Virus record (IMG/VR): IMGVR_UViG_3300046355_000046
Coordinates: 1 to 64,000 of that record
Strand: one strand, 5' to 3'
Length of the DNA: 64,000 nucleotides
Origin: a virus
The notes under the pieces: model-generated
The model's input: the letters and a program-made list of their open reading frames with translations, nothing else
The model's database searches: none
What the model was told of the DNA's origin: nothing
Position numbers and translations under genes: made by a program
Shown: positions 32,901 through 61,801 of the stretch, piece by piece
How positions within the stretch are numbered: position 1 is the stretch's first letter
Layout of the letters: the number at the start of each line of letters is the position of its first letter

Positions 32901-34600
32901 AGTCTAGTACATTCCATATCAGTAGAGGATACTTTTATTTATTTAACTCTGGTGTACGTGACTTCTTTGTAGAATCTGAAGTAAATGTAGCCTATAGAGA
33001 TTGGGAAGATCGTCCAGAAAAACGTCACTATGATAATAACGGACTAACTGATTTAAGTACTTTATTTAGATCAGATGTAATTAAAGAACCTAACTACTAT
33101 AAATATGATTACTCATTAAGTGTATCTAAGTTATTTAACTCACAGATCACTTGGGGTAATGTGCTTGATAGAGACTTTGATCCTAAGAAAGCACAGACTT
33201 GTTACAGCTATTATCCTAATAGAGTTATTTATTCTCTTCCACAACAAGATGAAAGTAAGAAAGATAACTGGAGAGTTTATCTAGCTAACAACTATAAAAC
33301 ATTTGGTAGCCGTGTTACATCAATTAAGTCTGTTAATAAAACAGGTGCTTTATTTATGATGGCTTATCAGAGTCCTATGCAGTTTATGGGTGTAGAGGAA
33401 CTTAAGTTAGATGGCACTGGTGCTAAGATTACTATTGGAGATGGTGCATTGTTTAGCGGTCCACAACAACTTCAAGCATTAGTAAATGCTGATGAATCAT
33501 TTGAGTATGCATCATGTCAAAGTAAGTATGCTACATTAGGATGTACGCATGGTGTATTCTGGGTAAGTCAGAACCAAGGAAAGATATTCCAGTATGCTGG
33601 ACAGCTTAAAGAAATATCTAGAGAAGGAATGAAATGGTGGTTTGCTAAATACCTACCTTCTGAATTACTTACTAAGTATCCTAATTATCCATTGTACGAT
33701 AACCCTGTAAAAGGTGTAGGGGTACAGATGACGTATGACAATACTAATGAGATAATCTATATCACTAAGAAAGACTATAAGCCTTTATTTAATGATATGG
33801 GTCACGATGCTGATGGTAAGTTTTATAGAACTATTAATGGTCTTAAGACATACTATGACTTTAATAATCCATTAGCATTTGAGAATGCATCATGGACTAT
33901 TAGTTATGATCCAAAGAATCAAACATGGTTATCATTTCATGACTGGAATCCAACGTTTGTGATTCCAGGAAAGGCTCATTTCATGAGTGTGGATACCAAC
34001 TCTATATGGAAGCATAATGTACGTTGTGATTCTTATGCAAATTTCTATGGTAAAGACTATCCATTTGAAGTGGAGTTTATCTCAGCTACAGGCCAGCAGG
34101 TTAACTCAGTAAGAAACATTGAATACTTACTAGAAGTATATAAGACGCATAATAACTGTGCAGATAAATTCCATGTACTAGATCAAAACTTTGATCAAGC
34201 TATTATTTCTAACTCTGAGCAAGTGTCTGGTTTACTTGAGTTAAACGTAAAGCCTAAAAACAATCCTGTTGCAGCTTTATCTTATCCTCAGATTCAACCT
34301 AACTCTATAAAGATATTATTCTCTAAAGAAGAAAATAAATATAGATTCAATCAGTTCTGGGATATAACAAAGGATCGTGGTGAGTTTAATACTCTTACTA
34401 ACCAGTCTATGTTTATCACAAAAGCTAATGGTTACCAGTATGAGATTAATCCTCAGTATGTTGATTACGGTAAAGCAGCTTTAGAGCGTAAGAAGTTTAG
34501 ACATCACGTAAATAAAGTATGGTTAAGAAAATCAAAGAGTGGTGATCTAAAAATGTTGTTTAAGATATCTAATCAAAAGTTAACAGTATCACATAGATAA
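29981..34600 (+). CDS. Tail stabilisation / muzzle protein (Tstab-like, 1539 aa)
   Basis: N-terminal FNKGMVKD...ARNAV..IGNEPSN; beta-propeller-like; C-terminal WTISYDP..WLSFHDW; position after Ttub. Confidence 0.8.
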   Translation: MAENTQNPTSTTNLFNKGMVKDYNETFVGEGLWTHARNAVNNSHDGQIGVIGNEPSNLHCVTLPYTMIGCIHLTDDMWAIFTTDDVNSEIGIFDESQCSYTKKVNSPCLNFKRSNLITGTSRRRYDCERPVYWSDGLNPDRFMDLENPPFKYTESISNGCVTKLYTTELNCEEIRLTSLITHPCIILEKGKASGTLPNGSYQIAIAYTINKVKVSDYLGLSEVQSLFSHQNLSSSLEVKITTIDKDFEEFELVILAQINGQTIARRVGYYSTNQGTIYLDALSNDFETIPISQIVVRTEPIEKSDAIYTVNNYMLRVGTYSKTKFNYQPQANSIQARWVAVEYPANYYVKGGNNTGYMRDEQYAFFIRWVYNTGERSESYHIPGRVAMSTDTALANGTDAYENQEGIQLEKWQASNTATVETTTPSVLADGGRVVAKGKMGYWESTELYPSNRVDIWGNLCGQPIRHHKFPDVTITGGDVVNHFTNDGNNIVILGVEFHNITKPVDVNGNVITSIVGYEVLRGSREGHKTVISKGLINNMREYSVPNQTNITGLYQNYPFNDLREDSYLTSQEQLGDNGGPDASSSKLNGYKKDVLSFHGPDVTFSTPYLSSSEVKLYQEIYGESNGRFETPYKHPKFKLPTNFTDLLTNVLAAVATIAKLVGALAGADTKVEFQGTDDIPLTQSLLAPHRAEAISGAIFGLANGWIGTTGIVGGNEAASVKRTFANSAITVANAVVLGAMATIQIDVTSEQFMKLILAIIPYKQYAAQYVAHGYYNKSRTTLEGNRRRKIVESSYVNSDIQSFTANSQNYMVNNFNRGKFVIIKTNADVNNPTTVDNSRFLISEKDGSLYSTYQSTVSGHYGALKISLPSQYGQLDSLKQIPISFCIEDVTTSNTTKITSNVYFGGDVYINRFTEKNSMLFFNTWLYGEPNGAELDYTMYFSMPYPRFWINNTNLSGGLFKLASQFRVLDHRKSSTFHISRGYFYLFNSGVRDFFVESEVNVAYRDWEDRPEKRHYDNNGLTDLSTLFRSDVIKEPNYYKYDYSLSVSKLFNSQITWGNVLDRDFDPKKAQTCYSYYPNRVIYSLPQQDESKKDNWRVYLANNYKTFGSRVTSIKSVNKTGALFMMAYQSPMQFMGVEELKLDGTGAKITIGDGALFSGPQQLQALVNADESFEYASCQSKYATLGCTHGVFWVSQNQGKIFQYAGQLKEISREGMKWWFAKYLPSELLTKYPNYPLYDNPVKGVGVQMTYDNTNEIIYITKKDYKPLFNDMGHDADGKFYRTINGLKTYYDFNNPLAFENASWTISYDPKNQTWLSFHDWNPTFVIPGKAHFMSVDTNSIWKHNVRCDSYANFYGKDYPFEVEFISATGQQVNSVRNIEYLLEVYKTHNNCADKFHVLDQNFDQAIISNSEQVSGLLELNVKPKNNPVAALSYPQIQPNSIKILFSKEENKYRFNQFWDITKDRGEFNTLTNQSMFITKANGYQYEINPQYVDYGKAALERKKFRHHVNKVWLRKSKSGDLKMLFKISNQKLTVSHR

Positions 34601-37089
34601 TGAACAAGCTATTACAATATATGATTGGTGCAGGTAATGTATCAGATAAGTTTCTTCCACAGCTTACTAAAGCTCAGAAAGGATTTACTGCATTACCTAC
34701 TTTCCAAAAAGCTGGACAGGTTCAAACAAAAAAACCTATTGTAGATCCTAGAGTGTTTCCTCAAGAGACACTTGCTAATAGACAAAAGGTTTATAAAACT
34801 GTAAGACCAACAGATTATACTGATCTAAAAAATTATATCAGATACGTATTTAATAATGAGAGAGATGAGTATGATGATGCTCGTAGTGAGGAAGCTTTTA
34901 AGATGTATTTAGGTTTACAACCTAAACCAGAATACTTTAGACCTTCTAAGTATAAACCTACAATAAACGCTGATCCTAATGGTTTTTATTATAGTGCAGA
35001 TCAACAGTTAGAGCAAGATATATTTGATAGCTTTAAAGATAAAGTAAAGCCAGGTCAAATCATGCCTACTGATGAATATTTTGTAAATAGTTATTTTCCT
35101 GGTAACCCAAATGCATTTTGGGAAGGAGATAAACAGATGGTTAAGTTTGGACCTAATGATGAAAATCCATTTGTGGGTAGACCAATGGTTAGTCGTGCAA
35201 GAGCTTTAGGTAAGTTTGTGGTTAGTAGAGGTTCTGATAATCAAGGTGATTATTTATCTTATGCTGATCAGTATGATTTTCCTAAAAAGCTTCAAGATAA
35301 AATGCAAGGACAACCATATAAAATCTATGGTAGAGTTTACTATCCAAAAGATAAAAAAGCTTATGGTGGCTTTTTTAAACAAGGAGGTGGACAAACTGTA
35401 ACTAATCCTTTCTGGGAAGGCTCGTATGATTTTAAACCAATTAACCAAGGTACAGTTGATGAGATAAAATCTGAAATGGCTGGGTATATTCAGTCACCTT
35501 TGTATGCACAAAGACAGGCTATGCATCCAGAAAGATATATAGGTAATAATCTTAGTTACTATGAAGACCCTAAATCATTCCAAAATTCTACAGCTTCTGC
35601 TAAAAGATCATATAGATTAATGGATCTTTATGATCAACCTACTCAGATTAAAAACATTGGAAAGTTTAAGGATTACTATGATCCTAAGAAAAGAAAGACT
35701 GTGTTAAACAGTTCTAATTTAGAAAGTGTTGTAGCTCATGAGCTTGGTCACTCTTTATTCAAAGGTGAAACTTTAAGTACAGTTTTAGATTCAGACTATG
35801 ATAATAGTAAATATTGGGATGACTTAGCAGCTGGTAATAAAACTAAATTTGGTACTTCTTTAAATAAAGCAGAAGTTGATAAGTTTAAAAGTTTTGCTTA
35901 TCCTATAGCTAATGAAGACGAGCACTATGATAATAGAGGGTATGGAGATTTTGCTAATGAGTCTTATGCTGACTTAACAGGTATTAGACATTTGTTATAT
36001 AAGAATGGAATTACTAAGAAGTTTGGTGATAATATTAACAGAACTATTTATGAAAAAGCTTTAAAGAATAAGCAGATTCAGAATGACCCTGTATTTAAAA
36101 GAATGCAGCAGAAGTATAGCCCTGGTAAAATCATTCTTCTAAATAACACTATTGCACAAAATACTGATACTAAATCAGATCCAAACATGGCTGAATATGG
36201 TGGACCTATCTTAGATTCTCGTGGTCAATGGGCTCATCCTGGTAAAGTAACTCGTATACCTGGATCTAATATCACTATGCAAGGTGTTAACTATCCTGTA
36301 TATGGTGTAGGCTCTAATGGTCAACAACAGATGATGCAGCCAGGGCAAGAATATAACTTTGGTGGTGCATCTTATGTAGATGAGTATCCTATAATGCAGA
36401 ATGGTGGTTTACTAAGCAGATCTGTTACTTGTTCTAATTGCGGATGGTCATGGAAAGCTATAGATGGAGGTCATGATCCTATGACATGTCATAAGTGTGG
36501 AGGTGCTGTTAAGATGCAGGGTGGGGGAACGGCTTATGTTGATTCTGTACTAAATGCTAACAAGAATCTTAATTGGGTGCAAAGACTATATCCAAAGAAT
36601 ACACCTTCTATGCAGATACCTGGAGTAAAAGGGCCTAGTACACATTATATGCAAAGCGGTGATGGTCGTGTATATCCAACAGTAGTACAAACGCCTAATG
36701 GTTCTTTAAAGTATTTAGGTAAAGATGCATTTGATTATGCAGACTCTACTAAGACTTATATACAGTTTCCTTCTGATGCTGCAGCAACTTGGTTTGGTGA
36801 AAATTATAAAAAAGGAACTGGCGTGTTACCAAAGAATGCATCAGGCGGTCAACATGGTGGATTAGATAGATGGTTTGCAGAAAAGTGGGTAGATGTTAAA
36901 AGTGGTAAAGCATGTGGTAGACAAGAAGGAGAAAGTCGTAAAGGTTATCCAGCATGTCGTCCTTCTAAAAGAGTAAACTCTCAGACACCTAAGACATCAT
37001 CTGAAATGAGTCCAGCAGAAAAAGCTAAATTTAAAGCTAGTAAAACTAGCAGTGAACGTATATCATATAATCATAAAAGAAATAAATAG
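34600..37089 (+). CDS. Modular cargo polyprotein 1 (zincin HELGH domain, CxxC Zn-ribbon, DUF5872-like C-terminus; xxGG linkers)
   Basis: HELGH at 35737-35751; CSNC...CHKC at ~36430-36498; modules bounded by FQKAG, AYGG/FKQGGG, MAEYGG, MQNGG, MQGGG, ASGG/QHGG. Confidence 0.6.
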   Translation: MNKLLQYMIGAGNVSDKFLPQLTKAQKGFTALPTFQKAGQVQTKKPIVDPRVFPQETLANRQKVYKTVRPTDYTDLKNYIRYVFNNERDEYDDARSEEAFKMYLGLQPKPEYFRPSKYKPTINADPNGFYYSADQQLEQDIFDSFKDKVKPGQIMPTDEYFVNSYFPGNPNAFWEGDKQMVKFGPNDENPFVGRPMVSRARALGKFVVSRGSDNQGDYLSYADQYDFPKKLQDKMQGQPYKIYGRVYYPKDKKAYGGFFKQGGGQTVTNPFWEGSYDFKPINQGTVDEIKSEMAGYIQSPLYAQRQAMHPERYIGNNLSYYEDPKSFQNSTASAKRSYRLMDLYDQPTQIKNIGKFKDYYDPKKRKTVLNSSNLESVVAHELGHSLFKGETLSTVLDSDYDNSKYWDDLAAGNKTKFGTSLNKAEVDKFKSFAYPIANEDEHYDNRGYGDFANESYADLTGIRHLLYKNGITKKFGDNINRTIYEKALKNKQIQNDPVFKRMQQKYSPGKIILLNNTIAQNTDTKSDPNMAEYGGPILDSRGQWAHPGKVTRIPGSNITMQGVNYPVYGVGSNGQQQMMQPGQEYNFGGASYVDEYPIMQNGGLLSRSVTCSNCGWSWKAIDGGHDPMTCHKCGGAVKMQGGGTAYVDSVLNANKNLNWVQRLYPKNTPSMQIPGVKGPSTHYMQSGDGRVYPTVVQTPNGSLKYLGKDAFDYADSTKTYIQFPSDAAATWFGENYKKGTGVLPKNASGGQHGGLDRWFAEKWVDVKSGKACGRQEGESRKGYPACRPSKRVNSQTPKTSSEMSPAEKAKFKASKTSSERISYNHKRNK

Positions 37090-49600: not shown

Positions 49601-52600
49601 TGATCTATTAGAAGGATTGAACTACTACTTCTTTACAGAGTTATTCAAACGAGGAAATAATATAGATAGCATCTTAGGAAGTTTAGACAAGAAACAGTCT
49701 AATGCTTTATTAAATAATTTATGGAATAAATCTGTAGAGCAAGTATCTAATAACTTGTCTTTGATTAGTCCAAAGATTAACTCTACACTTAATGCTAACA
49801 TAGATGAGTTCTACAGAGAATTCAAAAAGAACTTAGACCGTTATGGTGTAATCTTCTCTGAAATAGAAGAAGATGAGAACAACGTTACAGATACTTTAGG
49901 TATCAGAGACGCTATTACAATTGACCCTAGAAGCATGACGTCTACAAACGTTATGTTATTACTTACTTCTTTACCACAGACTACTGTAACAAGAGGTAAA
50001 ACTGTCCTTGTAAAGAACGATCTTAACCAACCACGTTTAGCTAATACAGATAGAGTACATACAACCCTACTTAACGAACTTAGTAATGTAGTGAGTATTG
50101 TAGATAAAGACGGTGTTCGTAAAAATACTTTAGATCTAATGATGGAAAAATTAGATAAGAAGTACAAAACTGCAGACAATAACTACCGTGAAAACTATGG
50201 CTGGGTACGTAACTTAAAGCTACGTCTTAAATATGAGAACAACTTAGGAATTAAAACACCTGCTTCTACATTAAATAAAGAAGACGTTTTATTAAGAGTT
50301 TCATTTACTAAGAGTTTTAGCAATGCTAGATTCTCTCCAGAGAAACTTATTGTTTCTGATGAGGGATACATCTACAACACTAATCCGCTTATTAATGTAA
50401 ATGAGGATAGAATCCGTAATGAGTGGGCTAATAACTTAAAGGTAGCTGTTCAGAACAAACAGACTAACTTAGTTAAGATTGATAGCTCTGGTCGTATGAT
50501 GATCAATAGAAAGTCTGATGACTATATTGATCTAATGGATGAAGCTAAAGCTAGAAGTACATATGACTTGGCTACAGCTTTAAATGCACTAAGTATATTA
50601 GGTATTGAGTTTACTGCTACCTTAAATGAACTAGCACAGTTTGAGAACAGTATTCGTGAGCAAACTCTTCAGATTCTAGACGTAATGAAGTCAGGAGAAA
50701 TAGATGATATTGCTGATCTATTTGGTAGAAACGTAGTAGGTGGTAGAATTAACACACTTATTGCTATTGAATCTAAGTATAGCAGTGAAGATAATATCTT
50801 AAGTTACAATAATGCAGAAGGTCAGCAACAGTTTAGTGTTGGCCAACCGTCATTGTTAAGTAACATGATTAACATTTTGAATACAGTTAACTCACAAGAG
50901 GAGCTTATTCAGACTGCACCATGGTTAGGATTTATTGATGAGGAAGGTGAAGTAGTATTCAATGCTTACCAAACTAACTCAGAGCTTTTAAGAAAAGGCG
51001 GACGTTTGTTTGATATCAACGGAAAGCGTAAGAATAATACAGAAATTAGCTATCATGTTATTTCTGGTTTAGGTATTACGGAAGTTGATGGTAATAACAC
51101 AGCCAAACTTCAGTTCCCTGAGCGTGTAGCTAACAAGATTCACTTTTTGTTAAATAATGTTGTGTTCTCTAACATCAACTCAGATAAGAGTACAGAATAT
51201 GGTATTGGAATTCCTGGTAAGCTTATGGTAAGCAGAAGGGATATTCAGAAAATGATGACTACAGAAGACAAGAGTATTGTGGACATGTACGTAAATCATT
51301 TATATGATGAGATGTATGCTGCTACTATACAAGCTGATAGTCCAGTAGATATTCAATACTACCGTGATGGTGTATTTAACTTAGGTCACTTCAGAGATAT
51401 CATTGGTAAAGACATGATTGCTAAGTTCAATCAAGATGTCATTACTAACGAGATGGACTTTGAAGAGTTTATTGAAGAGAATAGAGAGTTAATTGAAGAT
51501 AAGATTACTACTTACATCAACAATAAGATTGAAGATACAGTTGCTTTCTTAAAAGACTTAGACTTGTTCATCAAGCCTGATACCTTTAAGAGTGACTTAT
51601 ATATTACAGATGCTATTGATAATGATGGCTTAGATGAAATGTTAGGTATCAAAGATACTCAAACATTAAACTACAGAACTGGAGGATATGATTCTGAGTT
51701 AAAGAGTCGTAGTGGATATACAGAAGATAATATCAGAACCATTGCTGCTATTCTTTCTTTAAACGAAGAATTACTTTTAACAGAGCAGCATAAGTTGATC
51801 TACGGTCACCCTGCCTTATATAAAGACTTACCTAAGCGTGCTAATGGTGCTACTTCTACTAAAGAAGCTTTTGTAGAAGATAGTGATGTTGTTGCTTGGA
51901 TGGATAATAACATGGTACGTAATGATGGCAAACTTCGTTCAGAAGAGACACATCAGACTATCAAGAACATATCATTTAAAGACATGGATGTAGTAAGTGC
52001 ATTCTATAATGATATTGCAGAAAGTACATATGCTGAAATGATTGCTTCTGGTATTACTAAAGAAATAGCAGAGAAAAAGATTGGTGCAAGATTTAATGAG
52101 CAAGGTCAGATCTCTGGATTGATTTTAAACAAGAAGAAAGAGTTTACAGGTATGATTAAAGCATACATGAACTTAAATGAAGCTGATGCCATGGCTATGG
52201 GTTTACCAGACGTAATTAGAGATATTCTATTTATGAGTGGTAAGTTTACTAGTCAACGTGAAGCTCAATGGGATTATGAGATTGCTTATGAGACTTTAGT
52301 TCGTTCTGGAGCTATGCCAAATGCTAAAGGTGAGACTATTAAAAAGTCAGATCCTCGTTATAAGTCTGCTAACAAAGCTCAAATAGAAGCTGCTAAAGAA
52401 ACATTTGATAAAGGAAATCCAGGGTATGTATTTGAGGTATTAAAGCCACAGTACTTTGGATATGCTCAGACAGATAATGTAACTCATCCAGTATTCTTGA
52501 AGCATGCTTTACAACCTAAGTTCTATCGTCACGTAGAAGGTAATCAGTTTGAGAAGCTTTACATAGCTGCTCAGAAAGATAAAGTAGATGTAATTGGTTT

Positions 52601-55600
52601 TGAGTCAGGTGAAAAAGTGGGTAACGTAACTACTACGGATGGAAACTTCTTACCAATCTATAATGAGGCTGGAGAGATTAATGTTGTAACATCAAACAAA
52701 GGATATGAGTTACCAACTGAATTGCCACGTCAGAGTCTATACAGTAGATTCTACGGAATTCAAGTTGAGCAATCTAGTAAGCCTAAAAAGTTCGTTGTAA
52801 AAGGAACTCAAATTACTAAACAAGTAATGAGTAACTTCTATGAGAATGGTGCTCCTGTTAATCCAACTATTGGCGGTCTTATCCAAGAGTATAACGAGAC
52901 TATTCGTGAGATGATGAGACTTGGTAAAGAAGAGCTTCTTAAAGAACTTGGTCTTGAGAAAAAAGGTGACTTCCAGTATGAAGCTAAAGATATCTCTAGA
53001 TTAGTTAAGATCTTAAGAAGAGAAGCTGAGAGCAGAGACTTACCAGATAACATGATTAATGCTATCAACTACATTGTAAATGAAGATGATACACAATCAT
53101 TAGAGTATGAGTTTGATACTTTAATCAACCGTGATAAGATAGATAATATTCTTAACTCAATTGTGGACAGCAGAATTATCTCTCAGAAAATGAGTGGTAA
53201 GTCTTCACCGCAAGTTGCTAGCACTACATATGAAGCTGCTCCAAGAAACTATGTTTATCTTAAAGATGGTATTTACAAGACACTTACTAAGTCAGAACTT
53301 AAAGGATTAACAGAAGAAGAGAAAGCGTCTATTCGTATGCAGTCTTCAGATCTTAAGTTTTACCACTCTAAAGATGGTAAGATTCAAGGTGTAGAGATGT
53401 ATATTACATGGCCCTTCACTGAGGTTACTCCAGAAGAGTTAGGATTAAAATTAGTAAATGGTATTTACTTAATGCCGGAAGGTGGTATCAAAGGTATTGA
53501 TAATGAGTTACTTAAGGCTATTGGTTTCCGTATTCCTACACAAGGTATGAACTCAATTGAGAGTATTATCATTAAAGGATTTACTCCTATTACTAATGGT
53601 GATATGATTGTAGTTCCTTCTGAGATTGTTGGTAAAGCTGGATCTGACTTTGATATAGATAAGCTTAATATCTATTTAGGTAATTACTTTGTAGATATTC
53701 TTGGTAAGGATTACTCTGGTAAAGACTTTAGAGACTTCATGATTAATGACATGATCTCTTCTGGAGCTGATCAAATATATGCAGATAACGTAATGAACGT
53801 TATTACATCTGAGCAGTTCAAGCAGATTAATGAATCTACATATACAGATAGAGGTAAGATTGTTAAAGGAGCTAAGACTAGCTTAAGTGACATTAGTGCA
53901 TCTAAAGAAACACAAGAAGACTTAGCATTTATTAAGGCTAGTCTTTCTAGATATAATGCTTCTGTAAAAGGACAAAAGGTTATCCGTTATATCAAGCCTA
54001 CACTTGGTACTAAAGAAAGCTTACAGAATAAGTTAATCAACATAATGTCTGAACTTATTCTTAGACCAGAGAACTATGCTCAGCTTGTAGCTCCAAATAC
54101 AACAGATACTCTTAAGGATCTTGCAGAAGAGATTAAAGGATGGAAAGTTGATGCTGGTACTAAACAACTAGAAGATGAGAAGTCTCCTACATACTTAAGA
54201 ACATTTATTGGATCTAATAGTATCCGTGAGCGTTACTTAACAGCTAAAAGAATGGTAGGTATTGCAGCGGTACACTCTACGTTCCATGTAATGGCTCAAG
54301 TTAGTGGTCTTAAACTAAATAATAGATATAGTTCTAAGAGCATCTATTACTTAAACGCTAAAGGAGAAGATACTAAAACAGTAAACATCAAGCTTACTCA
54401 CCACGGTAGAGATGAGAATGGTCTATACTCAATTGGGCATAGACTAGACAAAGCAGGTGCATTTATTAGTGAACTTATCTCACAAGCATTATCTGGTTTT
54501 GTGGACGGTGCTAAAGATCCATTTGTATTTGACTTAAACTTTTCATTAAATACAGCTAGTACTTGGTTCTATTTACAACATCATGGTGTACCAGTAGATG
54601 AGATAGCTTACTTCTTTAATCAACCTATCTTAGATAGCTTGTTCAAAGAAACATCTAAGAATAGATCTTCATTCAAAGTGATTAACGGTGAGAACCTTAC
54701 TAGAAAAGAATTATTCTATAAAGTTATCGCACCTTACTATAACAAAGTAGTAGGTGGTGATTTAGAAGCTATGCTTGCTGGAGCAGCACAATCATCTAAG
54801 GCTCAAGAAGATGCGTTACAAAAACTTATCTTAGCTGAGCTTAATGAGATTAGAGATAGCCTTGAAACATTTGATAGTAAAGAATTAATTAAAGCTATCA
54901 AAGATGGTAGTAATGCTGATGCAAGATTACAGATTGCTGTAATAATGGATTATGTAGAGTATGAAGCTCAGGCTAGATTGATGTCTAACTTCATGCAGGC
55001 TATTGGATATGATACTAATAAGACCAAAACTGTACAAGAAAACATGTTACAAATTGGTCGTTGGGAAAGATCTAAACAAGAGAACTTTGTTAATAATCCG
55101 GATTCTATTCTAGAAAGTACTTTCTTAGGAGAGATGAAAGATCAAAAAGAAGATATCTTTAGCATGTTTAGAAACTTCTTTATTACATTATCTCCTGAGA
55201 TCCAAGAAGTGTTCCAGCCATTGTATGATAAGATAGATAATCCAGAGTTCTTTATTATGAAGGATGATGCTATCAACTTAATTAATAGATACCAAAACTT
55301 TGTAATTGCTTACTTACTTCATACTACACCGTATATGAATACTGAAGGAAAGCAAGAAACATTAAATACTTTATATCAAGACTTGTTTACTGGAGAGAAT
55401 TCTTTTGCTGGTACATTATACAAGTATAAGAATTCAGAAGATCCAAATATCTCTGACAACTTGATTATCAAGGAGTTAGTACCGTTGATGACAGATGATG
55501 CTACTAAGACAGATAATATCATGTTGTTCAGAAATAAGATAGATACTTTCCAGATAAATAATGTCATAGAAGCTTATAACAACTTAAGAAGTTATGGTGA

Positions 55601-56381
55601 GAAAACAGCTGATGATAAGCTAGTAAAATTTGCTGATGACCTAGCTAAATTTAGTATATTGCAGTCAGGTTTACAAAGTAGTTTCATTGACTATAAAAAG
55701 GTATTAAGTACTGAGATTTACTCTGAGCTTGTAAAAACAATCTTAGATAGATTTAAATTAGACCCATCTATATCAGTAGATCAAGTATGGAAATCTTTCC
55801 ATCAGAACAACTGGTATAATAGATCAATTGTAACTAAAGCACCAGCTTGGTTAAGAATTAAGAGTGGTCAGTTGGCAATTAGTCCATTAAGTTCTGTTAT
55901 TGTTAATGACTATTTGATCAAGTATGTACGTAATCCTAAGATCAGTAAAGAGGAATTAAAAAAGATGAAGAAAGATAAGACATTGGCTCAAGCTTTCCAA
56001 CCTGTATTATTCCAAAAGACTGAACAAAAAGATAAGAAAGGAAAGATTATATACATGCCTATTGGTAAAGCTGGAAACAGAAACCGTATGCTTGAGATCT
56101 ATAAAGATGATCAAGAGTCTATTTTACCAGGTAATGTAATGCAGATAGAAACACAAGATGCCTTAACTGCAGCTGAAGGATATGTATCTGCTGAAGACTT
56201 GATGAGACAACCAGGGTTTATTAAAGCCATGGGTGAGTTAGCAGGTGAAAAGACTCAGAATAACGGTCTAAAAGCTCTAGCTGAGAATGCCTTAAAAAGC
56301 TTGAATGAAAGTAAGGAAGTAGATGATACTATCTCTAAAAAAGAGGATGAATCTGTTAAATGTAATAAAAAAGGTAAATAA
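43653..56381 (+). CDS. Giant virion-packaged RNA polymerase (crAss-like double-psi-barrel vRNAP) with N-terminal hydrophobic region and zincin-like domain (4242 aa)
   Basis: IGFRIPTQ (RIPTQ at 53529-53543) followed by VPSEIVGKAGSDFDIDKL (DFDID at 53646-53660), the catalytic motif of phi14:2 gp66-type RNAPs; also FESGEKVG and VDGAKDP motifs; HEAFE at 49179. Confidence 0.9.
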   Translation: MAENLFEQDYLSNLPENAIEGVPSTEEMPVYDTPVEAPSSIDQPEQQIATGQEPPRSKYKSYDEALNAINVEANRVFPLANESWIDPRVVPSETAKKYRGTKYGYIYGIDNDNFYGEQEGGFATFGKGIARLGLGILTKTGEGIGYIGGLLDSDNWDADIITKASDNGFSEIFRNIDDKAKNDWLPTYQEAADRNKGFWSKAFTDGDFWMTDAVDGLAFLASAWIPGLALSKLQLGANLARLASGMRVGLGAAEAAIEGAGAAVNYTKSAANAFSKLDKFNAWALATSSESMYEAKAVKDKVMDSLSYDEFGRTRYKEDGTPYTDEEKKRISGAAAQNTFIMNAGLLAATNAIELKWLGQAFGKAPGVAGAVTGAAQFGESMGVRTATSGIERFLNSKKGAFISGIGQGVLAEGYVEENGQLAIQRINEAYGTSGRMADLSNTSEVFKQYFKQTGDALMGKDTEASISIGIGGILGGIGAGVGGVRQFGRDQAATQAAVEMYNAAQENWLKFGNIYKTKLVDSTDAEGNPVKVEKVVYDDNNQPVLDEKRIAAVTSSFRAVNSALEESTKVDDKFKKDALRDTAFAQFVIAHINAGVEGTIDQKLDAVRKSDPEQIAKLGFVLGEDIDTQINRYKGLAASIIKQNKLMNADIMYDGTQDDVARKNKMVNMAAEQAAYKTILNDLLTEVTEVKNDLLSTENSSLSDGIVEQLNEYQYRIKSQEEVIAAMQKKGFVTNLETVAQEVLDGLKKSFDKLQKDNETTIATLEKDDNGFYKYEKEDRNQPGVSDNLNKKIKLKGELQNHIKGIGLEWAKYADTINGKENFLQSLSDEMLSVVDSQLKAEAAKPKPPVAIAPTQSKLSVTYKTEDDVEITTEFVTGDIYNLTDTNSGEVTKLEVMAVNEEDSSVTIKINDGDPAVIDAEELATTLANEGWTKQAVKKTRKKAVKKDVDEDGQEETEELEDNETVTTFSKTNKLPKFEEVGFNKTFGRQYLDEEDTVPNEENGTDRFFKFTAKFNLARRGYALQVITSENDTFGIRDTEFNANDIKVVVVKKQPQADGSVKYAYVNVDNELIPEGEQTKDNIIYRSLAGIDSWTVERVRREYTVDSETTDEEIQEAIDAEKAYQKTLLDNTKDGGNVYLDVVTAMPGIQRIEYTSAVGEDGKRQLSKAEVEGRVITNNPDFTDLRSVSNPDVNIGLRVSTGRGVVMAGVQAGRVVMQEYTMENGKKIYGDKVIRVFNRDLTDIEKDNLIKAFVRLSELYVQKYGYNAASGKKKIKPLSTADQAEMSIIEDYLKHILNWSRPVKGKVSDKYFWVQSGLHRGNLVIPFTKEEILKNRDKLVRGVTHHVNNKALQDNDSFTTIKFVKGKAVLDKSYDTYEEYLLAKREDGTTPPVYSSLPLYDSNTPQRTQVQIIWKDPSLVEPEAEEEVKASKKKPIAKIKGSSELMDDKIDEFLNGERTKIEVNGVTVSYEMEGGGIIIKVQKEKNIKKSKPFASQKEIADNRSEILKSITQATGYIYGANRGLKQLIAQVTQKAAEAKVTKAPTTSVTPQVADRDTETDNDLRFKNIVRSIFEIKEGNMVRPDYLKPENIEMYEDSDVAGYILKININDIDYVAIMPEMQDLRFDSIERLQQFDNSGLKKVSDETKNNILNGYTDIFDLELVDIVTKRFGKENADFVLDYLTKNKDAKQKLTLLEKGATTSVSAQDGPFFSVEEAVANAVPENGKLSAVVSQMNVKTKEVVKLAEATIAIPSGNINAAKALLTKALIAQLDIDSEEPPFRLDIGEMEATEDFGKLTKFMKEVLPMFPVKKVGHLIHGKGLGAFMRGALHIYENATIGTGFHEAFEAVWASFLTQDEKLDLANEFKAREGSFYNKFTKETKPYSEASMYDVREMLAEEFRDYILLDRSTGNKIANFFKNLWKAIQALFNITPKEKAEMNSIINDLFKKIGTGGFKNARFIKDRLASGIAYKAVADLTQKDTADLLEGLNYYFFTELFKRGNNIDSILGSLDKKQSNALLNNLWNKSVEQVSNNLSLISPKINSTLNANIDEFYREFKKNLDRYGVIFSEIEEDENNVTDTLGIRDAITIDPRSMTSTNVMLLLTSLPQTTVTRGKTVLVKNDLNQPRLANTDRVHTTLLNELSNVVSIVDKDGVRKNTLDLMMEKLDKKYKTADNNYRENYGWVRNLKLRLKYENNLGIKTPASTLNKEDVLLRVSFTKSFSNARFSPEKLIVSDEGYIYNTNPLINVNEDRIRNEWANNLKVAVQNKQTNLVKIDSSGRMMINRKSDDYIDLMDEAKARSTYDLATALNALSILGIEFTATLNELAQFENSIREQTLQILDVMKSGEIDDIADLFGRNVVGGRINTLIAIESKYSSEDNILSYNNAEGQQQFSVGQPSLLSNMINILNTVNSQEELIQTAPWLGFIDEEGEVVFNAYQTNSELLRKGGRLFDINGKRKNNTEISYHVISGLGITEVDGNNTAKLQFPERVANKIHFLLNNVVFSNINSDKSTEYGIGIPGKLMVSRRDIQKMMTTEDKSIVDMYVNHLYDEMYAATIQADSPVDIQYYRDGVFNLGHFRDIIGKDMIAKFNQDVITNEMDFEEFIEENRELIEDKITTYINNKIEDTVAFLKDLDLFIKPDTFKSDLYITDAIDNDGLDEMLGIKDTQTLNYRTGGYDSELKSRSGYTEDNIRTIAAILSLNEELLLTEQHKLIYGHPALYKDLPKRANGATSTKEAFVEDSDVVAWMDNNMVRNDGKLRSEETHQTIKNISFKDMDVVSAFYNDIAESTYAEMIASGITKEIAEKKIGARFNEQGQISGLILNKKKEFTGMIKAYMNLNEADAMAMGLPDVIRDILFMSGKFTSQREAQWDYEIAYETLVRSGAMPNAKGETIKKSDPRYKSANKAQIEAAKETFDKGNPGYVFEVLKPQYFGYAQTDNVTHPVFLKHALQPKFYRHVEGNQFEKLYIAAQKDKVDVIGFESGEKVGNVTTTDGNFLPIYNEAGEINVVTSNKGYELPTELPRQSLYSRFYGIQVEQSSKPKKFVVKGTQITKQVMSNFYENGAPVNPTIGGLIQEYNETIREMMRLGKEELLKELGLEKKGDFQYEAKDISRLVKILRREAESRDLPDNMINAINYIVNEDDTQSLEYEFDTLINRDKIDNILNSIVDSRIISQKMSGKSSPQVASTTYEAAPRNYVYLKDGIYKTLTKSELKGLTEEEKASIRMQSSDLKFYHSKDGKIQGVEMYITWPFTEVTPEELGLKLVNGIYLMPEGGIKGIDNELLKAIGFRIPTQGMNSIESIIIKGFTPITNGDMIVVPSEIVGKAGSDFDIDKLNIYLGNYFVDILGKDYSGKDFRDFMINDMISSGADQIYADNVMNVITSEQFKQINESTYTDRGKIVKGAKTSLSDISASKETQEDLAFIKASLSRYNASVKGQKVIRYIKPTLGTKESLQNKLINIMSELILRPENYAQLVAPNTTDTLKDLAEEIKGWKVDAGTKQLEDEKSPTYLRTFIGSNSIRERYLTAKRMVGIAAVHSTFHVMAQVSGLKLNNRYSSKSIYYLNAKGEDTKTVNIKLTHHGRDENGLYSIGHRLDKAGAFISELISQALSGFVDGAKDPFVFDLNFSLNTASTWFYLQHHGVPVDEIAYFFNQPILDSLFKETSKNRSSFKVINGENLTRKELFYKVIAPYYNKVVGGDLEAMLAGAAQSSKAQEDALQKLILAELNEIRDSLETFDSKELIKAIKDGSNADARLQIAVIMDYVEYEAQARLMSNFMQAIGYDTNKTKTVQENMLQIGRWERSKQENFVNNPDSILESTFLGEMKDQKEDIFSMFRNFFITLSPEIQEVFQPLYDKIDNPEFFIMKDDAINLINRYQNFVIAYLLHTTPYMNTEGKQETLNTLYQDLFTGENSFAGTLYKYKNSEDPNISDNLIIKELVPLMTDDATKTDNIMLFRNKIDTFQINNVIEAYNNLRSYGEKTADDKLVKFADDLAKFSILQSGLQSSFIDYKKVLSTEIYSELVKTILDRFKLDPSISVDQVWKSFHQNNWYNRSIVTKAPAWLRIKSGQLAISPLSSVIVNDYLIKYVRNPKISKEELKKMKKDKTLAQAFQPVLFQKTEQKDKKGKIIYMPIGKAGNRNRMLEIYKDDQESILPGNVMQIETQDALTAAEGYVSAEDLMRQPGFIKAMGELAGEKTQNNGLKALAENALKSLNESKEVDDTISKKEDESVKCNKKGK

Positions 56382-56383
56382 CT

Positions 56384-59300
56384 ATGGGTTGTAGTATAAT
56401 TCGTAATCCTGAGACTAAACAAATAGAAAGAGTATTAGCTCCTAATGGAAAAGAGTCTAGACTCTATGAAGATATTCTTTCTATTATAGGATCTAAAGCT
56501 AAAGAGGATGCTCTTAAGCTTTGGGCACAAGTGTATACCACTAAGTTTAAAGACTGGTTTGGTGATTGGGAAAGACTTGAGCGTATTAGACGTGAAGACC
56601 CGGGTATGGATGCCGGTACATTTGAGACTGTTAATGCGTTTGTATCTAAAGATATAGATGAAAACGGTGAACCTAAAATCTTAAATGGTTTATTTACTGA
56701 TAGAAATGGTAATGTAAGAATGTTCTATAATGCTTTAGAAACAAATGAAGCTCAGTTAAATGAAGACTATTTGTTTAATACTCCATTTACTACAGAGATT
56801 CGTGAGCTTGAAGAAGACTCAGAAGCTTTCTTTAGACGTAATCGTGAGCTTGCATCTATTGGTAGCCCTCAACAATATTCAGAGTATCTTAATACTGTGT
56901 TTCCTGGTAGTAGGATAAAGAGTATTGTATATCATGGTACTTTCTTAAAAGACTTAATTAAAGACGGATTCAAAGGATACGTTACTTACTTTAGTACTTC
57001 TAAGAAATACTCAGATCAATTCAGCTTTGGTAAAGATGAGAACATAATTAGAGCTGTTGTAAATATTCAAAATCCTTACACCGCTCCATCTGAGATTGCT
57101 GATGTACCAGAGGAAGTACATGATACAGATGCTTTTACTGCTCCTAGAGTAGTGAAATCTAGAAACTCTGGATATGATTCAGTTGTTGGTAAAGATGCTG
57201 GTCAAGAAAAAGGTGACACTATTGCTGTGTTTGAACCACAACAGATTCTTGTACTAGGTTCTAAAGAAGACATTGAAGGTTTTAGAAGATTTGTATCTCC
57301 ATCTTTAACTGCAAAAGATATTGAAGAAGGTACAAGACCAGAGGATGTTAAGAATAAGATTACCAAATTCTTAGAAAAGATTGGTGTAGCTATTCAGTCT
57401 GTAGATGTAATCAGAGATGCTCAAGGTAATATTGTAAAAGATGCAGCTGCTAAAGCTAGCATGTTAAATAAAATCATTCAGGTAGTAGATGGTTTAGAAT
57501 CACTAGATACACTTCCTGAAGAAGCAGCTCACTTTTTTGTAGAGATGTTAGGCCCAGGTCATCCTTTGTACAAAGAGATGGTATCTAAAATTACAGGATA
57601 TAAGGTATATGCACAAACTGTAGAACAGTATAAAAACAAAGCTGCATACCGTAATGCAGATGGTACTATTAATTTTGATAAGATTAAGAAAGAAGCTATT
57701 GGTCAAGTGATAGCTGAACATATTCTTAAGATGCAGACTGGCAATGAGACTCAAGAACGTATGAACTTTTTGATGAATTGGTGGACTAAGCTTTGGGACT
57801 TTGTTAAAGAGATATTTAATAAGTCTGAAGACAATCCATTTGAGACAGCTGCAGAAAATATCTTAGATGGTAATACTGAGTTCTTAGATACAGATATTCA
57901 GTTAGACGAAGAGTATTATCAGTTAGTAGATCCTACTCAAGGATTAAAGATGGATCAGACTAATATTGAATTAGATAATAGTATTGATCCAAGAACTGGT
58001 CAGAAGAGACACATTTATAAATACAAAGGTGAGAATGCTAAAGGGTCGGTTACTTCTACATATGTAGATAGATGGCTTAAGAAGATATTTAGATCTGACC
58101 AAAGATCAGAAAAACAAAAGCTTATTGATTTAAATAAAGCTGAGTTTGGTGATGTAATCCATAAGCAGATTCAGAATATTGTTAATAGCTGGACTTATGA
58201 TGATGGTAGCAAGCGTGATGTACAAGGTCCTATAAATATCATTCTTCCAAACGCAGTGTACACAAGATTGAATACTTACATTCAATCAGTAATGGCTCAG
58301 TATGAACCAGGTACTCAGTTTATGTCTGAGGTTAAAGTGTTTGATCAGAAAGCTAAGATTGGTGGAAGTATTGACTTAGTTGTTATCCAACCTAATGGTG
58401 TTGTAGACATCTATGACTGGAAATCACAAGAGGTGGGTAAGACACAAACTGACTTAAAGACTTACAAAGAAACTATGTATCGTATACAGCTAGAGAACTA
58501 TCGTAAGATCTTACAGCTGCAGTATGGATTCCAGAAGTTTGGAAAACTTCGTGCTATTCCTATGAGAACTAAGTTCACTATAAAGAATGGTCAGATTGAT
58601 ACTATTAAAGAATTAGAGGTTGGTAATATTGACCCTACTTTAATTCCTGATGATAAAAGCTATTTATTACCTGTTACTCTTCGTACAGAAAGTACCGGGG
58701 ACAGTCAAATGGATAGTCTATTAGAGAAACTAAATGGTATCTATGACAAGATTGATAAAACAAGATACACTAAAGAAGAGCTTTATAAGAAACGTGAAGA
58801 GCTAGCTCAGCTTAGAGTTGCTATCAGAGATTTGCAGCTTAAGAATAAAGTAGATCGTTTAGTAGAGTTAGGTCTTTTGGAGTATAAGAAGTATGCTGAA
58901 ATGCTTGATAATAAAACATTAAGCGGTAAAGAACTTCAGGATGCTATTAAGATCTTACAAGTATTTAGTGAATCAGGTGTATTGCTTTATGACTTAAGAG
59001 AACAATACTTTAACGTAGCACAAAACAGTAAAAAGAAAGGTGCTATAGCTGAGTATGAAGATCTTAATAAAAGATTCTTGACTATGACGTCAAGAGTAAC
59101 AAAGCTTATTGCTGACTTAGATATTTATAGAAAAGAACAAGTAGACAACTTGGCTAAGAAGAATGGTATATTTAATATCCTAGATGCTGAAGCACCTCTT
59201 AGTACATATAGAGGTTTACTTAGTGCGTTAAGTAATATACCACAAAGAAGCTTTAGATTATTCTCTAAGATATTACGTGTAGTTCAGAATAACAGAGATG

Positions 59301-61801
59301 CTAAGTTTGATTCTACAGCAGCTAAAATGGTTCTTCTAAAAAAGAAGTTTTTAACATGGGCTAGTGCTAGAGGGATATCTGCAGATAAAGCCATGGAAAT
59401 GATTCTTCAGATAGATGAGAAAGGTAACTGGAATGGTAACTTCTTAAATAAATATAAGTCAGAGTTCAGAGAACAAAAGAACAAAGCCATATTATCTGGT
59501 AACAGTAAGTGGATTGTAGATAATATGAACTATGATAAAGAGAAGTATGAGGCTGCAGAAAAAAGAACTATAGAAAATTTCAGAAGTGTTGGTTATGCTT
59601 TAGATGAAGAAGCTAATGAGAAGATAGTACAAAAAAAGATTAAAGAGTGGGCTCTTAATCATAAGGTTGTTAATGATAATGGAACTGTTAACATTAAAGC
59701 TTTGCTTAATCCTACTAATGGTTTTTTAATACCGGCTGATCAATGGCTTACAGATAAGTGGTTAAACCTACAAAAGCCTGAGAACCAAGCACTTAAAGAT
59801 GTGTATGATTTCTTCCAATCATTAATTGATGAGGCAGAAGATTTAGGTATGTTAGATAAAAATTCTAAAAACTTTATTCCGTCTGTATTTGCTTCTAAGA
59901 TTGATCAGTTTGCTTTTGGGGATGTAAGAAATCTATTCTCTACTAAAGGGGTATTTGAAAATCTACAAGTAGATGCAGGTAATACATATACACCAGAGAT
60001 TGATCCAACTGATGGTACTATCATTAATCGTATTCCTGTATACTTTACTTCAGATATTGGCGTGAAGAATGAAGAAACAGGAGAAGTAGACTACTCTAAA
60101 AAGTCTAGAGACTTATTTAAAGTGTTTGCTGTATGGTCAGCTCATATGTATAACTATGAAGCTATGCATGAGATTGAAGACTCTTCTCAAATGTTATTAG
60201 ATGTTGAGCGTAATAAGCGTAGCTTGGTTACGGATCAGTTTGGTAATGTTAAAATAGAAAATGGTAAAGCTAAGTCTGCAGATAATAATGACAGAAATGC
60301 TAAAATCTTTGAAGAGTTTGTAAACTTCTATTTATATGACAGAGTTGGTGGTAAGTTTAACGATGCTAAACTTACAATACTAAATAAAGAATACTCATTA
60401 TTAAAGACAGGACAAGCTGCTATGAGATTCTTTAGTCTTAAGACGTTAGCATTAAGTCCATTGTCTGGTACAGCACAGTTTGTTGGTGGTACAGGTAATG
60501 CTTTGTTCATGGCTCAGAAAGGTATTTACTTTACTAATAAGACATGGGCTAAAGCTATGTACACTGCATCAGGAAGTAAGAAAGCTTGGGCCGCATTAAA
60601 GTTCATGAACGTACTTGGTGAAGGTAATACAAATGTTATGATAGAAGAGCTAAGCTTATCTGCAACTAACAGAGTATTGACTACAGAAAATGCATACATC
60701 ATGATGCGTATGGGTGATAAGGCTGTACAGTACCCAGTAGCTATTGCTATGATGATGGAGCATATGGTGCAAGACGGTAAGATTGTTAGTATACAGCAGT
60801 TTGTAAAAGCTAAGTATAACTACAATACAGAGTTTTATAACTTACCTAGTGCTGAGCGTAAAGCTTTGATGAAGAAGATAGACCAAGAAGTTGGTGAGCT
60901 TCAAGAAAAAGAAAGTGTTTACGTTAAAGGTGTAATGGATAAAGATGGTAATTTTACTATACCAGGAATAGAAAAAGATAGTGAAACATTTTCAGACTTT
61001 AGAAATAAGATTAAGGGTGTTAACAAGCGTATTGTTGGTAACCAATCTAGAGATGATATTAACAATATTAGAACTACTCTATTAGGTCAAGCTTTTATGC
61101 AATTTAGATCATGGATGCCAGAGATGGTTGAAGAAAGACTTGAAGGACTTAAGTATGATGATGAATTGCAGAACTGGACATATGGTAAGTTTCACTCATT
61201 CTTTGGTCATGTGTTTAGTAAAAAACTTCCTAAGCTTCTTAAAGCTATTATGACTGGGTTTGGAGATGACGCTGTACTATTAGCTAAAGAAAAGTATGAA
61301 GAACTTAAACGTGAAGCATATGAGAAAGGAGAAGACTTTACTATTACTGAAGGAGAATTTGTAGATATTCATATTGGTAATCTACGCTCTATGGTAGCTG
61401 AACTTATGACACTTACTGCATTTGCTTCTGCTGTTCTATCTGTTGTATCTGGAGATGATGGTAATAGAAGAAACAAAGGAATGAAACAGTATTTATCTAG
61501 AGCTCTTAAAAAGTACTACAATGAATTTGCATTTTACTACAACCCTATTGAACTAACTAGATTAATGAGATCTCCTTTACCTGTTGTAAGCTTAGCTGAA
61601 GATATGGTTAGATTCTTAGGAGCTTTAAATAAAGAAGCTGCAGGTCAGTTAGTTGGAAATAAAGATTGGACAGAATCAGCAAAACCATTGAAGTACTTTA
61701 CTAAGATGGTACCAGTAGCTAAAGAAGCTATGTTACTATTTGCCACCTATGACGATGACTTCAGAAAAGATTGGGGTATAAAAATAGAACCAGGATACTA
61801 A
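56384..61801 (+). CDS. Polyvalent virion protein: ART-like, degenerate zincin, PD-(D/E)xK nuclease and helical C-terminus (1805 aa)
   Basis: FKDWFGDW..DENGEP; VYHGT..YFS..GYDSVV..AVFEPQQI; LPEEAAH; SEVKV..IDLVV..IYDWKS..YRIQLENY. Confidence 0.75.
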   Translation: MGCSIIRNPETKQIERVLAPNGKESRLYEDILSIIGSKAKEDALKLWAQVYTTKFKDWFGDWERLERIRREDPGMDAGTFETVNAFVSKDIDENGEPKILNGLFTDRNGNVRMFYNALETNEAQLNEDYLFNTPFTTEIRELEEDSEAFFRRNRELASIGSPQQYSEYLNTVFPGSRIKSIVYHGTFLKDLIKDGFKGYVTYFSTSKKYSDQFSFGKDENIIRAVVNIQNPYTAPSEIADVPEEVHDTDAFTAPRVVKSRNSGYDSVVGKDAGQEKGDTIAVFEPQQILVLGSKEDIEGFRRFVSPSLTAKDIEEGTRPEDVKNKITKFLEKIGVAIQSVDVIRDAQGNIVKDAAAKASMLNKIIQVVDGLESLDTLPEEAAHFFVEMLGPGHPLYKEMVSKITGYKVYAQTVEQYKNKAAYRNADGTINFDKIKKEAIGQVIAEHILKMQTGNETQERMNFLMNWWTKLWDFVKEIFNKSEDNPFETAAENILDGNTEFLDTDIQLDEEYYQLVDPTQGLKMDQTNIELDNSIDPRTGQKRHIYKYKGENAKGSVTSTYVDRWLKKIFRSDQRSEKQKLIDLNKAEFGDVIHKQIQNIVNSWTYDDGSKRDVQGPINIILPNAVYTRLNTYIQSVMAQYEPGTQFMSEVKVFDQKAKIGGSIDLVVIQPNGVVDIYDWKSQEVGKTQTDLKTYKETMYRIQLENYRKILQLQYGFQKFGKLRAIPMRTKFTIKNGQIDTIKELEVGNIDPTLIPDDKSYLLPVTLRTESTGDSQMDSLLEKLNGIYDKIDKTRYTKEELYKKREELAQLRVAIRDLQLKNKVDRLVELGLLEYKKYAEMLDNKTLSGKELQDAIKILQVFSESGVLLYDLREQYFNVAQNSKKKGAIAEYEDLNKRFLTMTSRVTKLIADLDIYRKEQVDNLAKKNGIFNILDAEAPLSTYRGLLSALSNIPQRSFRLFSKILRVVQNNRDAKFDSTAAKMVLLKKKFLTWASARGISADKAMEMILQIDEKGNWNGNFLNKYKSEFREQKNKAILSGNSKWIVDNMNYDKEKYEAAEKRTIENFRSVGYALDEEANEKIVQKKIKEWALNHKVVNDNGTVNIKALLNPTNGFLIPADQWLTDKWLNLQKPENQALKDVYDFFQSLIDEAEDLGMLDKNSKNFIPSVFASKIDQFAFGDVRNLFSTKGVFENLQVDAGNTYTPEIDPTDGTIINRIPVYFTSDIGVKNEETGEVDYSKKSRDLFKVFAVWSAHMYNYEAMHEIEDSSQMLLDVERNKRSLVTDQFGNVKIENGKAKSADNNDRNAKIFEEFVNFYLYDRVGGKFNDAKLTILNKEYSLLKTGQAAMRFFSLKTLALSPLSGTAQFVGGTGNALFMAQKGIYFTNKTWAKAMYTASGSKKAWAALKFMNVLGEGNTNVMIEELSLSATNRVLTTENAYIMMRMGDKAVQYPVAIAMMMEHMVQDGKIVSIQQFVKAKYNYNTEFYNLPSAERKALMKKIDQEVGELQEKESVYVKGVMDKDGNFTIPGIEKDSETFSDFRNKIKGVNKRIVGNQSRDDINNIRTTLLGQAFMQFRSWMPEMVEERLEGLKYDDELQNWTYGKFHSFFGHVFSKKLPKLLKAIMTGFGDDAVLLAKEKYEELKREAYEKGEDFTITEGEFVDIHIGNLRSMVAELMTLTAFASAVLSVVSGDDGNRRNKGMKQYLSRALKKYYNEFAFYYNPIELTRLMRSPLPVVSLAEDMVRFLGALNKEAAGQLVGNKDWTESAKPLKYFTKMVPVAKEAMLLFATYDDDFRKDWGIKIEPGY

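Follow-up and report, generated by a model that had tools for sequence, protein, structure and literature searches.

Single cysteines at the facing ends of giant cargo proteins in a crassvirus-type phage, and a possible tail-to-head joint between them

How does a phage pass a huge RNA polymerase and its companion proteins, in order, through a narrow tail? The question is raised by the crassviruses, the most abundant human gut phages, for which the structural paper on crAss001 states only that the order is "likely controlled by packing and interactions" (PMC10172136). We address it using a stretch of viral DNA (positions 1-64 kb of the 86,457-nucleotide IMG/VR record IMGVR_UViG_3300046355_000046; G+C content 35%), which we refer to as the window. 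Two adjacent genes in the window encode a putative virion RNA polymerase of 4242 amino acids (aa) and a second cargo protein of 1805 aa. Each of these proteins contains one cysteine, and the two residues lie at the ends that face each other across the gene junction. We consider it probable that a tail-to-head disulfide between such residues links the cargo proteins into a single thread that is then ejected.

Cysteines at the junction of two giant genes

The following features of the window are needed for the argument (open reading frames are abbreviated ORFs).

43653..56381, plus strand: putative giant virion RNA polymerase, 4242 aa, with a single cysteine (ORF, translation, phmmer, BLASTP)
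53646..53660, plus strand: DFDID catalytic motif at polymerase residues 3332-3336 (regular expression search; single occurrence)
56166..56378, plus strand: C-terminal arm of the polymerase, about 70 residues (4172-4242), ending at the cysteine (AlphaFold2; low-confidence long helix)
56361..56363, plus strand: codon (TGT) of Cys4237, the only polymerase cysteine, 5 residues short of the C-terminus (…ESVKCNKKGK, then stop)
56384..61801, plus strand: second giant cargo protein, 1805 aa, with a single cysteine (BLASTP; homologue of phi14:2 g065 and crAss001 gp49)
56390..56392, plus strand: codon of Cys3, the only cysteine of the 1805-aa protein (MGCSII…; invariant in alignment A2)
56384..56713, plus strand: conserved N-terminal alpha/beta domain of the 1805-aa protein, about 110 aa (AlphaFold2 and conserved columns)
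41259..43637, plus strand: cysteine-free 792-aa protein, directly upstream of the polymerase (cysteine count; gene position)

Computed counts agree with what a sequence-only reading of this region had seen by eye. The polymerase has its only cysteine at residue 4237 of 4242, the 1805-aa protein has its only cysteine at residue 3, and the 792-aa protein has none; there is no further internal cysteine in any of the three. The polymerase gene ends at 56381 and the next gene begins at 56384, leaving the 2-nucleotide (nt) gap reported earlier, and the two cysteine codons are 27 nt apart. Two cysteines in 6839 aa compare with 59 expected from the remaining ORFs of the window (0.87% cysteine; P = 2e-23), or with 17.5 expected from the cysteine-poor tail-fibre block (0.26%; P = 4e-6). 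Thus, the claim that about 6800 aa nearly free of cysteine are not a product of chance is upheld, although its real test is conservation, which it passes (see below). If one cysteine per protein is assumed, the post hoc probability of both observed positions is about 2e-6, or 3e-5 (also post hoc) if up to 8 residues from either end are allowed.

The same reading had treated the purge of cysteine as a property of the giant proteins. The depletion is real, but it is not special to these three: ORFs of 1313, 717, 593, 405 and 403 aa encode other cysteine-free virion proteins in the window, and depletion alone is therefore not distinctive. The distinctive feature is the terminal placement of the cysteines.

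The 4242-aa protein is, as its matches indicate, a crAss-type two-barrel virion RNA polymerase. Residues 2915-3685 match phi14:2 gp66 (PDB 6VR4 chain A; phmmer against PDB, E=3e-18), BLASTP against phi14:2 g066 gives 2e-24, and a DFDxD-type motif has been described for crAss-like virion polymerases (bioRxiv 10.1101/2020.03.07.982082). Its first part matches g067 of phi14:2 and gp47 of crAss001 and its second part g066 and gp50 (BLASTP), so the protein is a fusion of two that those phages encode separately. The 1805-aa protein has BLASTP matches to crAss001 gp49 and to the next gene of cr108_1. An in-frame TAA two codons before its start, together with the conserved N-terminal sequence, establishes where the gene begins. 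PHROGs and Pfam scans of both giant proteins gave no family match, and no near-identical phage record was found, as tblastn returned distant matches only. Packaging in the virion and ejection are known only for the homologues in phi14:2 and crAss001, whose polymerase-module proteins were identified in virions (mass spectrometry; record notes and PMC10172136).

The surrounding genes have the order expected of Crassvirales, with muzzle, cargo and polymerase module followed by replication genes on the opposite strand (here a minus-strand ribonucleotide reductase). On the plus strand, tail-fibre genes are followed by a 1539-aa muzzle homologue (matching FpV4 gp29 and phi14:2 g071), several uncharacterised proteins, the 4242-aa ORF and the 1805-aa ORF. 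The 792-aa ORF occupies the position of cargo protein 2, whose counterparts (crAss001 gp46, phi14:2 g068 and FpV4 gp31) are all cysteine-free; it has no Pfam or PHROG match and no BLASTP match to these counterparts. Its earlier label as an ejection protein fits this position, which is the sole basis for the name.

Terminal cysteines in homologues, splits and fusions

Conservation was examined across crAss-like loci, as the sequence-only reading had suggested, and the terminal cysteines are kept. The polymerase set comprises 72 homologues with 23-100% identity over the last 600 residues (66 full-length); for the protein encoded next to it, 351 homologues were found and 120 were used in the terminal-cysteine counts. 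A cysteine lies within the last 9 residues of 72/72 polymerases and within the first 10 residues of 0/66 full-length ones. The C-terminal contexts are diverse (KCNKKGK, DDFTC, KQLC, RDC, GCKK and others), and no column other than the cysteine is invariant across the C-terminal 399 aa (49 aligned segments with a mean identity of 10%). The next protein has the mirror-image placement: a cysteine occurs at residue 3-8 in 115/120 homologues and in the last 10 residues of 0/120, and C3 is invariant in the alignment of N-termini (A2). Overhangs are short, with 0-8 residues after the C-terminal cysteine and 2-7 before the N-terminal one.

Five next-protein homologues are exceptions. One has its first cysteine at residue 14, and its start was probably called too far upstream. 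The other four lack cysteine: two are calls that begin internally, P0165 is an N-truncated call whose full form in related loci begins MATC, and P0146 differs over its first 135 residues from a 96%-identical relative that begins MATC. Non-terminal cysteines number 42 in 312,097 residues of the polymerase homologues and 10 in 231,045 residues of the next-protein homologues. Among IMG/VR loci holding both genes, both cysteines are present at 56 of 59 distinct junctions, and one of the three unpaired junctions was assigned in error, its target being a tail-fibre gene. We also considered whether a semi-conserved internal cysteine of diverged homologues (about 1800-2060 residues from the C-terminus) is the relic of a pair; this was rejected, as the g067/g066 junction, placed by BLASTP, is several hundred residues nearer the N-terminus.

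These comparisons bear on the simplest explanations, namely chance, an annotation artefact, a nucleotide-level signal at the junction, or lipidation of Cys3. A junction signal would suit the 27-nt spacing of the two codons at a 2-nt gene junction. However, about 190 homologues keep the cysteines while their contexts and spacing vary, and the comparative data already refute this group of explanations, which we regard as extremely improbable. A junction signal was rejected because the pair survives opposite-strand partners and intervening genes. A lipoprotein lipobox was rejected because Met-Gly alone precede Cys3, leaving no signal peptide, and homologues likewise have 2-7 residues there. A frameshift fusion of the two ORFs was also rejected, given a TAA in the frame of the next gene at 56375-56377.

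The same arrangement is found in cultured and reference crassviruses. In phi14:2, the only cysteine of g067 is its last residue (C1797), the only two of g066 are residue 3 and residue 2179 of 2180, and g065 has one, at residue 3. In crAss001, gp47 has one cysteine (residue 2339 of 2341), gp50 has cysteines at 5 and 2404 of 2412 plus one internal, and gp49 has one, at residue 5. The homologous module of both phages is thus split into three proteins with two cysteine pairs, and the rule at the junctions is the same; in the phage studied here, by contrast, the first two proteins are fused, there is one pair, and no cysteine occurs at the fused site.

Gene adjacency is not required. In crAss001, gp47 and gp50 correspond to two halves of the single polymerase of the window (BLASTP), and gp47 is encoded on the opposite strand from gp50, yet the facing-end pair is still present. 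Both ends made by this split therefore carry cysteine though the genes no longer adjoin. The IAS virus has the same pair, again with gp47-type and gp50-type genes on opposite strands. Since opposite-strand coding of the partners does not abolish the pair, the signal acts at the protein level. A pair also occupies the one junction present in FpV4, cr108_1, crAss002, crAssphage LMMB, cr271_1, cr4_1, cr55_1, cr118_1, cr52_1, cr124_1 and cr114_1, where crAss002 is counted as paired only if gp33 starts at Met33 (giving MSC). The phages showing the rule belong to Steigviridae, Intestiviridae and Suoliviridae, with one unclassified Flavobacterium phage. Judged from these sequences, the rule tracks protein boundaries and not the gene junction.

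A few gene calls in these genomes deserve comment. The annotated start of crAss002 gp33 (L013 15954-16052) probably precedes the true one by 32 codons, and terminal cysteines may serve as a simple annotation mark for the true starts and ends of giant genes such as this one. By the cysteine rule, an ORF of locus L042 (1578) probably starts at MACINP. The IAS virus genes gp055 and gp056 (L019 14138-23120) are probably one gene, as indicated by their overlap and by runs of N. In cr108_1 (MT774385), about 290 nt (L009 14936-15227) interrupt the polymerase gene inside its catalytic motif (…AGSD before and YDIDK… after) in an intron-like manner.

Natural splits and fusions provide a further comparison. 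Locus L103 encodes an unsplit next protein of 2307 aa with a single cysteine at residue 4. A free-standing gene of the GIY-YIG endonuclease family (Pfam PF01541) divides its 88%-identical relative in locus L102 (3863-12031) into pieces of 700 aa (…IKCS, then stop) and 1762 aa (MAC…). This type of split recurs in L031, L044, L067, L083 and L090, with variable flanking residues. In split loci, the upstream piece has cysteine as its penultimate residue, and the downstream one begins MAC, followed by a shared K-Y-I-Y-K-G-x-x-Y motif. The ends flanking the GIY-YIG gene are not homologous to the unsplit next protein, and thus the mobile unit may bring its own cysteine-tipped ends. Fusions of polymerase and next protein, P0202 (3798 aa) and P0201 (4622 aa), have no cysteine at the fused site, as is the case for the g067/g066 fusion site within the polymerase of the window. 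From the sequences compared, new splits gain a cysteine pair and fused forms are without it. In a protein of another arrangement (P0199, 3934 aa), a domain like the variable region of the 1805-aa protein comes first and the polymerase core after it; with cysteine at residue 3 and at the last residue, P0199 bears a tip at either end, as a link in the middle of a chain would.

A candidate disulfide joint and its alternatives

In the mechanism that we favor, Cys4237, at the tip of a flexible arm of the polymerase, would bond to Cys3, at the start of the N-terminal domain of the next protein. The intermolecular disulfide would form once the particle is outside the cell and would join the two cargo proteins tail-to-head into an unbranched thread of about 6050 residues. 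Selection would remove every other cysteine, so that no other cross-link could form in the capsid or periplasm, and the purged proteins would stay able to unfold and to traverse the narrow tail channel. The link would hold the proteins together and in fixed order during ejection, its short overhangs would let the joint pass the channel as a nearly linear chain, and the bond could be reduced in the host cytoplasm. Wherever the module is split into genes, a terminal disulfide would stand in for a peptide bond.

Structure prediction is consistent with such a joint. The AlphaFold2 model of the C-terminal segment of the polymerase (alignment A1) has a predicted local distance difference test score (pLDDT) of <50 at residues 330-399, with a helix at 361-394; the polymerase ends in a flexible arm. 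The N-terminal model of the next protein (alignment A2) has a pLDDT of about 90 for residues 1-110 and a strand at 4-7, with Cys3 just before the strand. The modeled arm ending at a cysteine resembles the C-terminal helix of gp27 of cyanophage A4 (discussed below) and would fit the tether. In crAss001 virions, disulfides occur in other proteins, and the cargo must partly unfold to exit (PMC10172136). The sequence-only reading had proposed that terminal cysteines chain the giant proteins tail-to-head for ordered packaging or ejection. The facing ends, the invariance of the residues, their covariation with splits and fusions and the presence of a pair at every module split in the Crassvirales sampled strongly favor the core of this idea, the tail-to-head pairing; from them we infer the bond and its role in packaging or ejection.

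Several observations weigh against a disulfide tether. Disulfide-linked species have been reported for no crassvirus. Oxidation is not guaranteed, because assembly occurs in a reducing cytoplasm and the gut crassviruses are anoxic, and no phage thiol oxidase or thioredoxin was identified among the scanned ORFs of the genome, which are a part of the total. The bond solved in cyanophage A4 is an analogy rather than a homology, as A4 gp26 and gp27 have no detectable similarity to the proteins of the window (BLASTP best E 0.38-0.58). Extra and apparently unpaired terminal cysteines are present in FpV4 gp30 (residue 5), crAss002 gp30 (550/557) and a protein of LMMB (860/861), and such lone tips on some upstream cargo proteins suggest that terminal cysteines may have other partners. 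Two loci (L080 686-8131 and L104 3-8593) have an N-terminal cysteine without an evident C-terminal partner. Here there is an inserted protein of 783/382 aa (MYKNI.VEAEHNELILEN…) with a CxxC at 42/45 and no Pfam match; it and its upstream neighbour end without cysteine, whereas the downstream protein has one at residue 3-4. Finally, a disulfide and a metal bridge are indistinguishable by sequence.

The metal bridge is one of three further alternatives. Two terminal thiols, perhaps from several copies, could hold a metal ion (zinc or iron, for example) in a non-covalent clasp, which predicts the same conservation and the same covariation with splits and fusions as a disulfide. A clasp would also work under reduced or anoxic conditions, and anaerobic gut phages keep the pair too. 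However, two thiolates make a weak site, no conserved His, Asp or second Cys is found nearby, and the sole solved analogue (A4) shows a disulfide and not a metal. We consider the clasp unlikely.

The lone tips described above (on FpV4 gp30, crAss002 gp30 and the 861-aa protein of LMMB) and the unbalanced loci L080 and L104 would be accounted for if each terminal cysteine bound a third partner, such as the inner capsid, the portal or the host membrane, and the facing ends were incidental. This leaves unexplained why cysteines are confined to facing ends (0/66 at polymerase N-termini and 0/120 at next-protein C-termini), and why both ends of a split gain a cysteine and fusions lose both. A third partner is thus rather improbable. 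Bonds of like with like, in which polymerases would pair tail-to-tail and next proteins head-to-head, are compatible with the sequences, and several copies per virion are plausible. Such dimers would leave split halves unlinked, with no reason for the joint gain of cysteines, and the A4 structure shows an unlike pair; we judge them very unlikely.

The conserved one-to-one cysteine pair at each protein boundary provides a concrete and cheaply testable hypothesis with named residues. In phi14:2 these are g067 C1797/g066 C3 and g066 C2179/g065 C3, and in crAss001 they are gp47 C2339/gp50 C5 and gp50 C2404/gp49 C5. More tentatively, cysteine pairs might serve as protein-level joints throughout Crassvirales, making split and fused modules equivalent; about 0.7 MDa of protein could then exit as one ordered thread that separates upon reduction in the cytoplasm, and splitting by GIY-YIG genes would be harmless. 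Since the split ends carry cysteine tips, these mobile genes could interrupt cargo genes without harm if the joint is real, and the joint would then be comparable to an intron or intein but act after translation. It has been suggested in print that fused crAss-like polyproteins "are likely cleaved". Cleavage may be unnecessary if the proteins work as a linked chain.

Other features of the window concern the second cargo protein, cysteine or redox conditions. Residues ~147-307 of the 1805-aa protein (56822-57304) form a variable domain that is 56-60% identical to domains in the giant proteins P0196 and P0197. Homologues carry a Pfam ART-PolyVal, PD-(D/E)XK or kinase domain at this position, and the variable domain probably serves as an effector that is injected to act on the bacterial host. 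In a Foldseek search, the N-terminal model of the 1805-aa protein matched only ADP-ribosyltransferase folds, and these weakly (E about 0.05); the search did not connect it with A4 gp26.

Beside the tail-fibre genes, 16526-17014 and 20464-20970 encode paralogous proteins of 162 and 168 aa (starting MALKITSQ). Their only cysteine is the last residue (…IVDC and …VVNC, each then stop), and it is kept in four IMG/VR relatives with 37-41% identity (…VVDC, then stop). Given that the fibre hubs of crAss001 are disulfide-bonded, these paralogues may provide the fibre apparatus with a disulfide anchor. An 829-aa protein of the virion block (34600-37089) has CxxC pairs at 611/614 and 630/633 that resemble a zinc ribbon, and has no family match. 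In sharp contrast to the cysteine-free cargo block, the protein encoded by 20995-22236 has 20 cysteines in 413 aa and that encoded by 22819-23475 has 8 in the first 47 of its 218 aa; both lie among proteins with fibronectin-III and SprB repeats.

The phage encodes both subunits, large and small, of a class I-type ribonucleotide reductase (L109 1206-3798; G000 63205-65797, minus strand), which suggests an oxygen-exposed host. Gut crassviruses, with B12-dependent or anaerobic reductases, have more internal cysteines in the corresponding cargo proteins (for example 10 in IAS gp056 and 20 in cr124_1). Comparing reductase class with these internal cysteine counts, the purge may be stronger in oxic habitats.

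Comparison with known systems

Two elements of this picture are already known: the cysteine depletion of ejected proteins in N4-like phages, and a single tail-to-head bond in A4. In the literature on crassvirus cargo and polymerase, as accessible, cysteines are not mentioned, and we found no Crassvirales paper on the pattern. The ejected proteins of N4-like phages are cysteine-depleted, with 0.00075% cysteine in homologues of DEV gp71, and this has been explained by passage through the periplasm (PMC11445570). The same cause, offered for the purge by the sequence-only reading, is thus not new. The Schitoviridae proteins (gp50/gp71 and gp51-52/gp72-73) resemble those of the window in that a giant ejected polymerase and its companions are nearly free of cysteine. 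They differ in having essentially no cysteine and no reported conserved terminal one, whereas the proteins of the window, though depleted as well, have terminal cysteines that are invariant. The N4-like polymerase is also T7-like and not of the two-barrel type (PMC13434306).

The proposed tether has a functional likeness to the AB toxins. In diphtheria toxin, for example, an interchain disulfide spans the passage across the membrane and is reduced in the cytosol. The likeness is functional only: the proteins are unrelated, and the toxin chains arise by cleavage of a single precursor and have no end-to-end connection.

The closest counterpart is cyanophage A4 (Anabaena phage A-4L), in which a disulfide between gp27 Cys1715 and gp26 Cys5 was resolved by cryo-electron microscopy (PMC12002296; PDB 9K3A). 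This bond locks the inserted C-terminal helix of gp27 in place within gp26; the paper does not generalise a terminal-cysteine rule (PMC12002296). A4 differs from the phage studied here in belonging to Saffermanviridae, in its smaller proteins and in having no RNA polymerase, and its bond was seen directly whereas here we infer it from sequence. Among the neighbouring proteins of A4, gp29 is without cysteine and gp28 has two, at residues 1036 and 1039 of 1058. The only cysteine of gp27 (1717 aa) lies 2 residues from its C-terminus, and the only cysteine of gp26 (1114 aa) is residue 5. Thus, in A4 as in the window, consecutive genes encode internal ejection proteins whose sole cysteines lie at facing ends.

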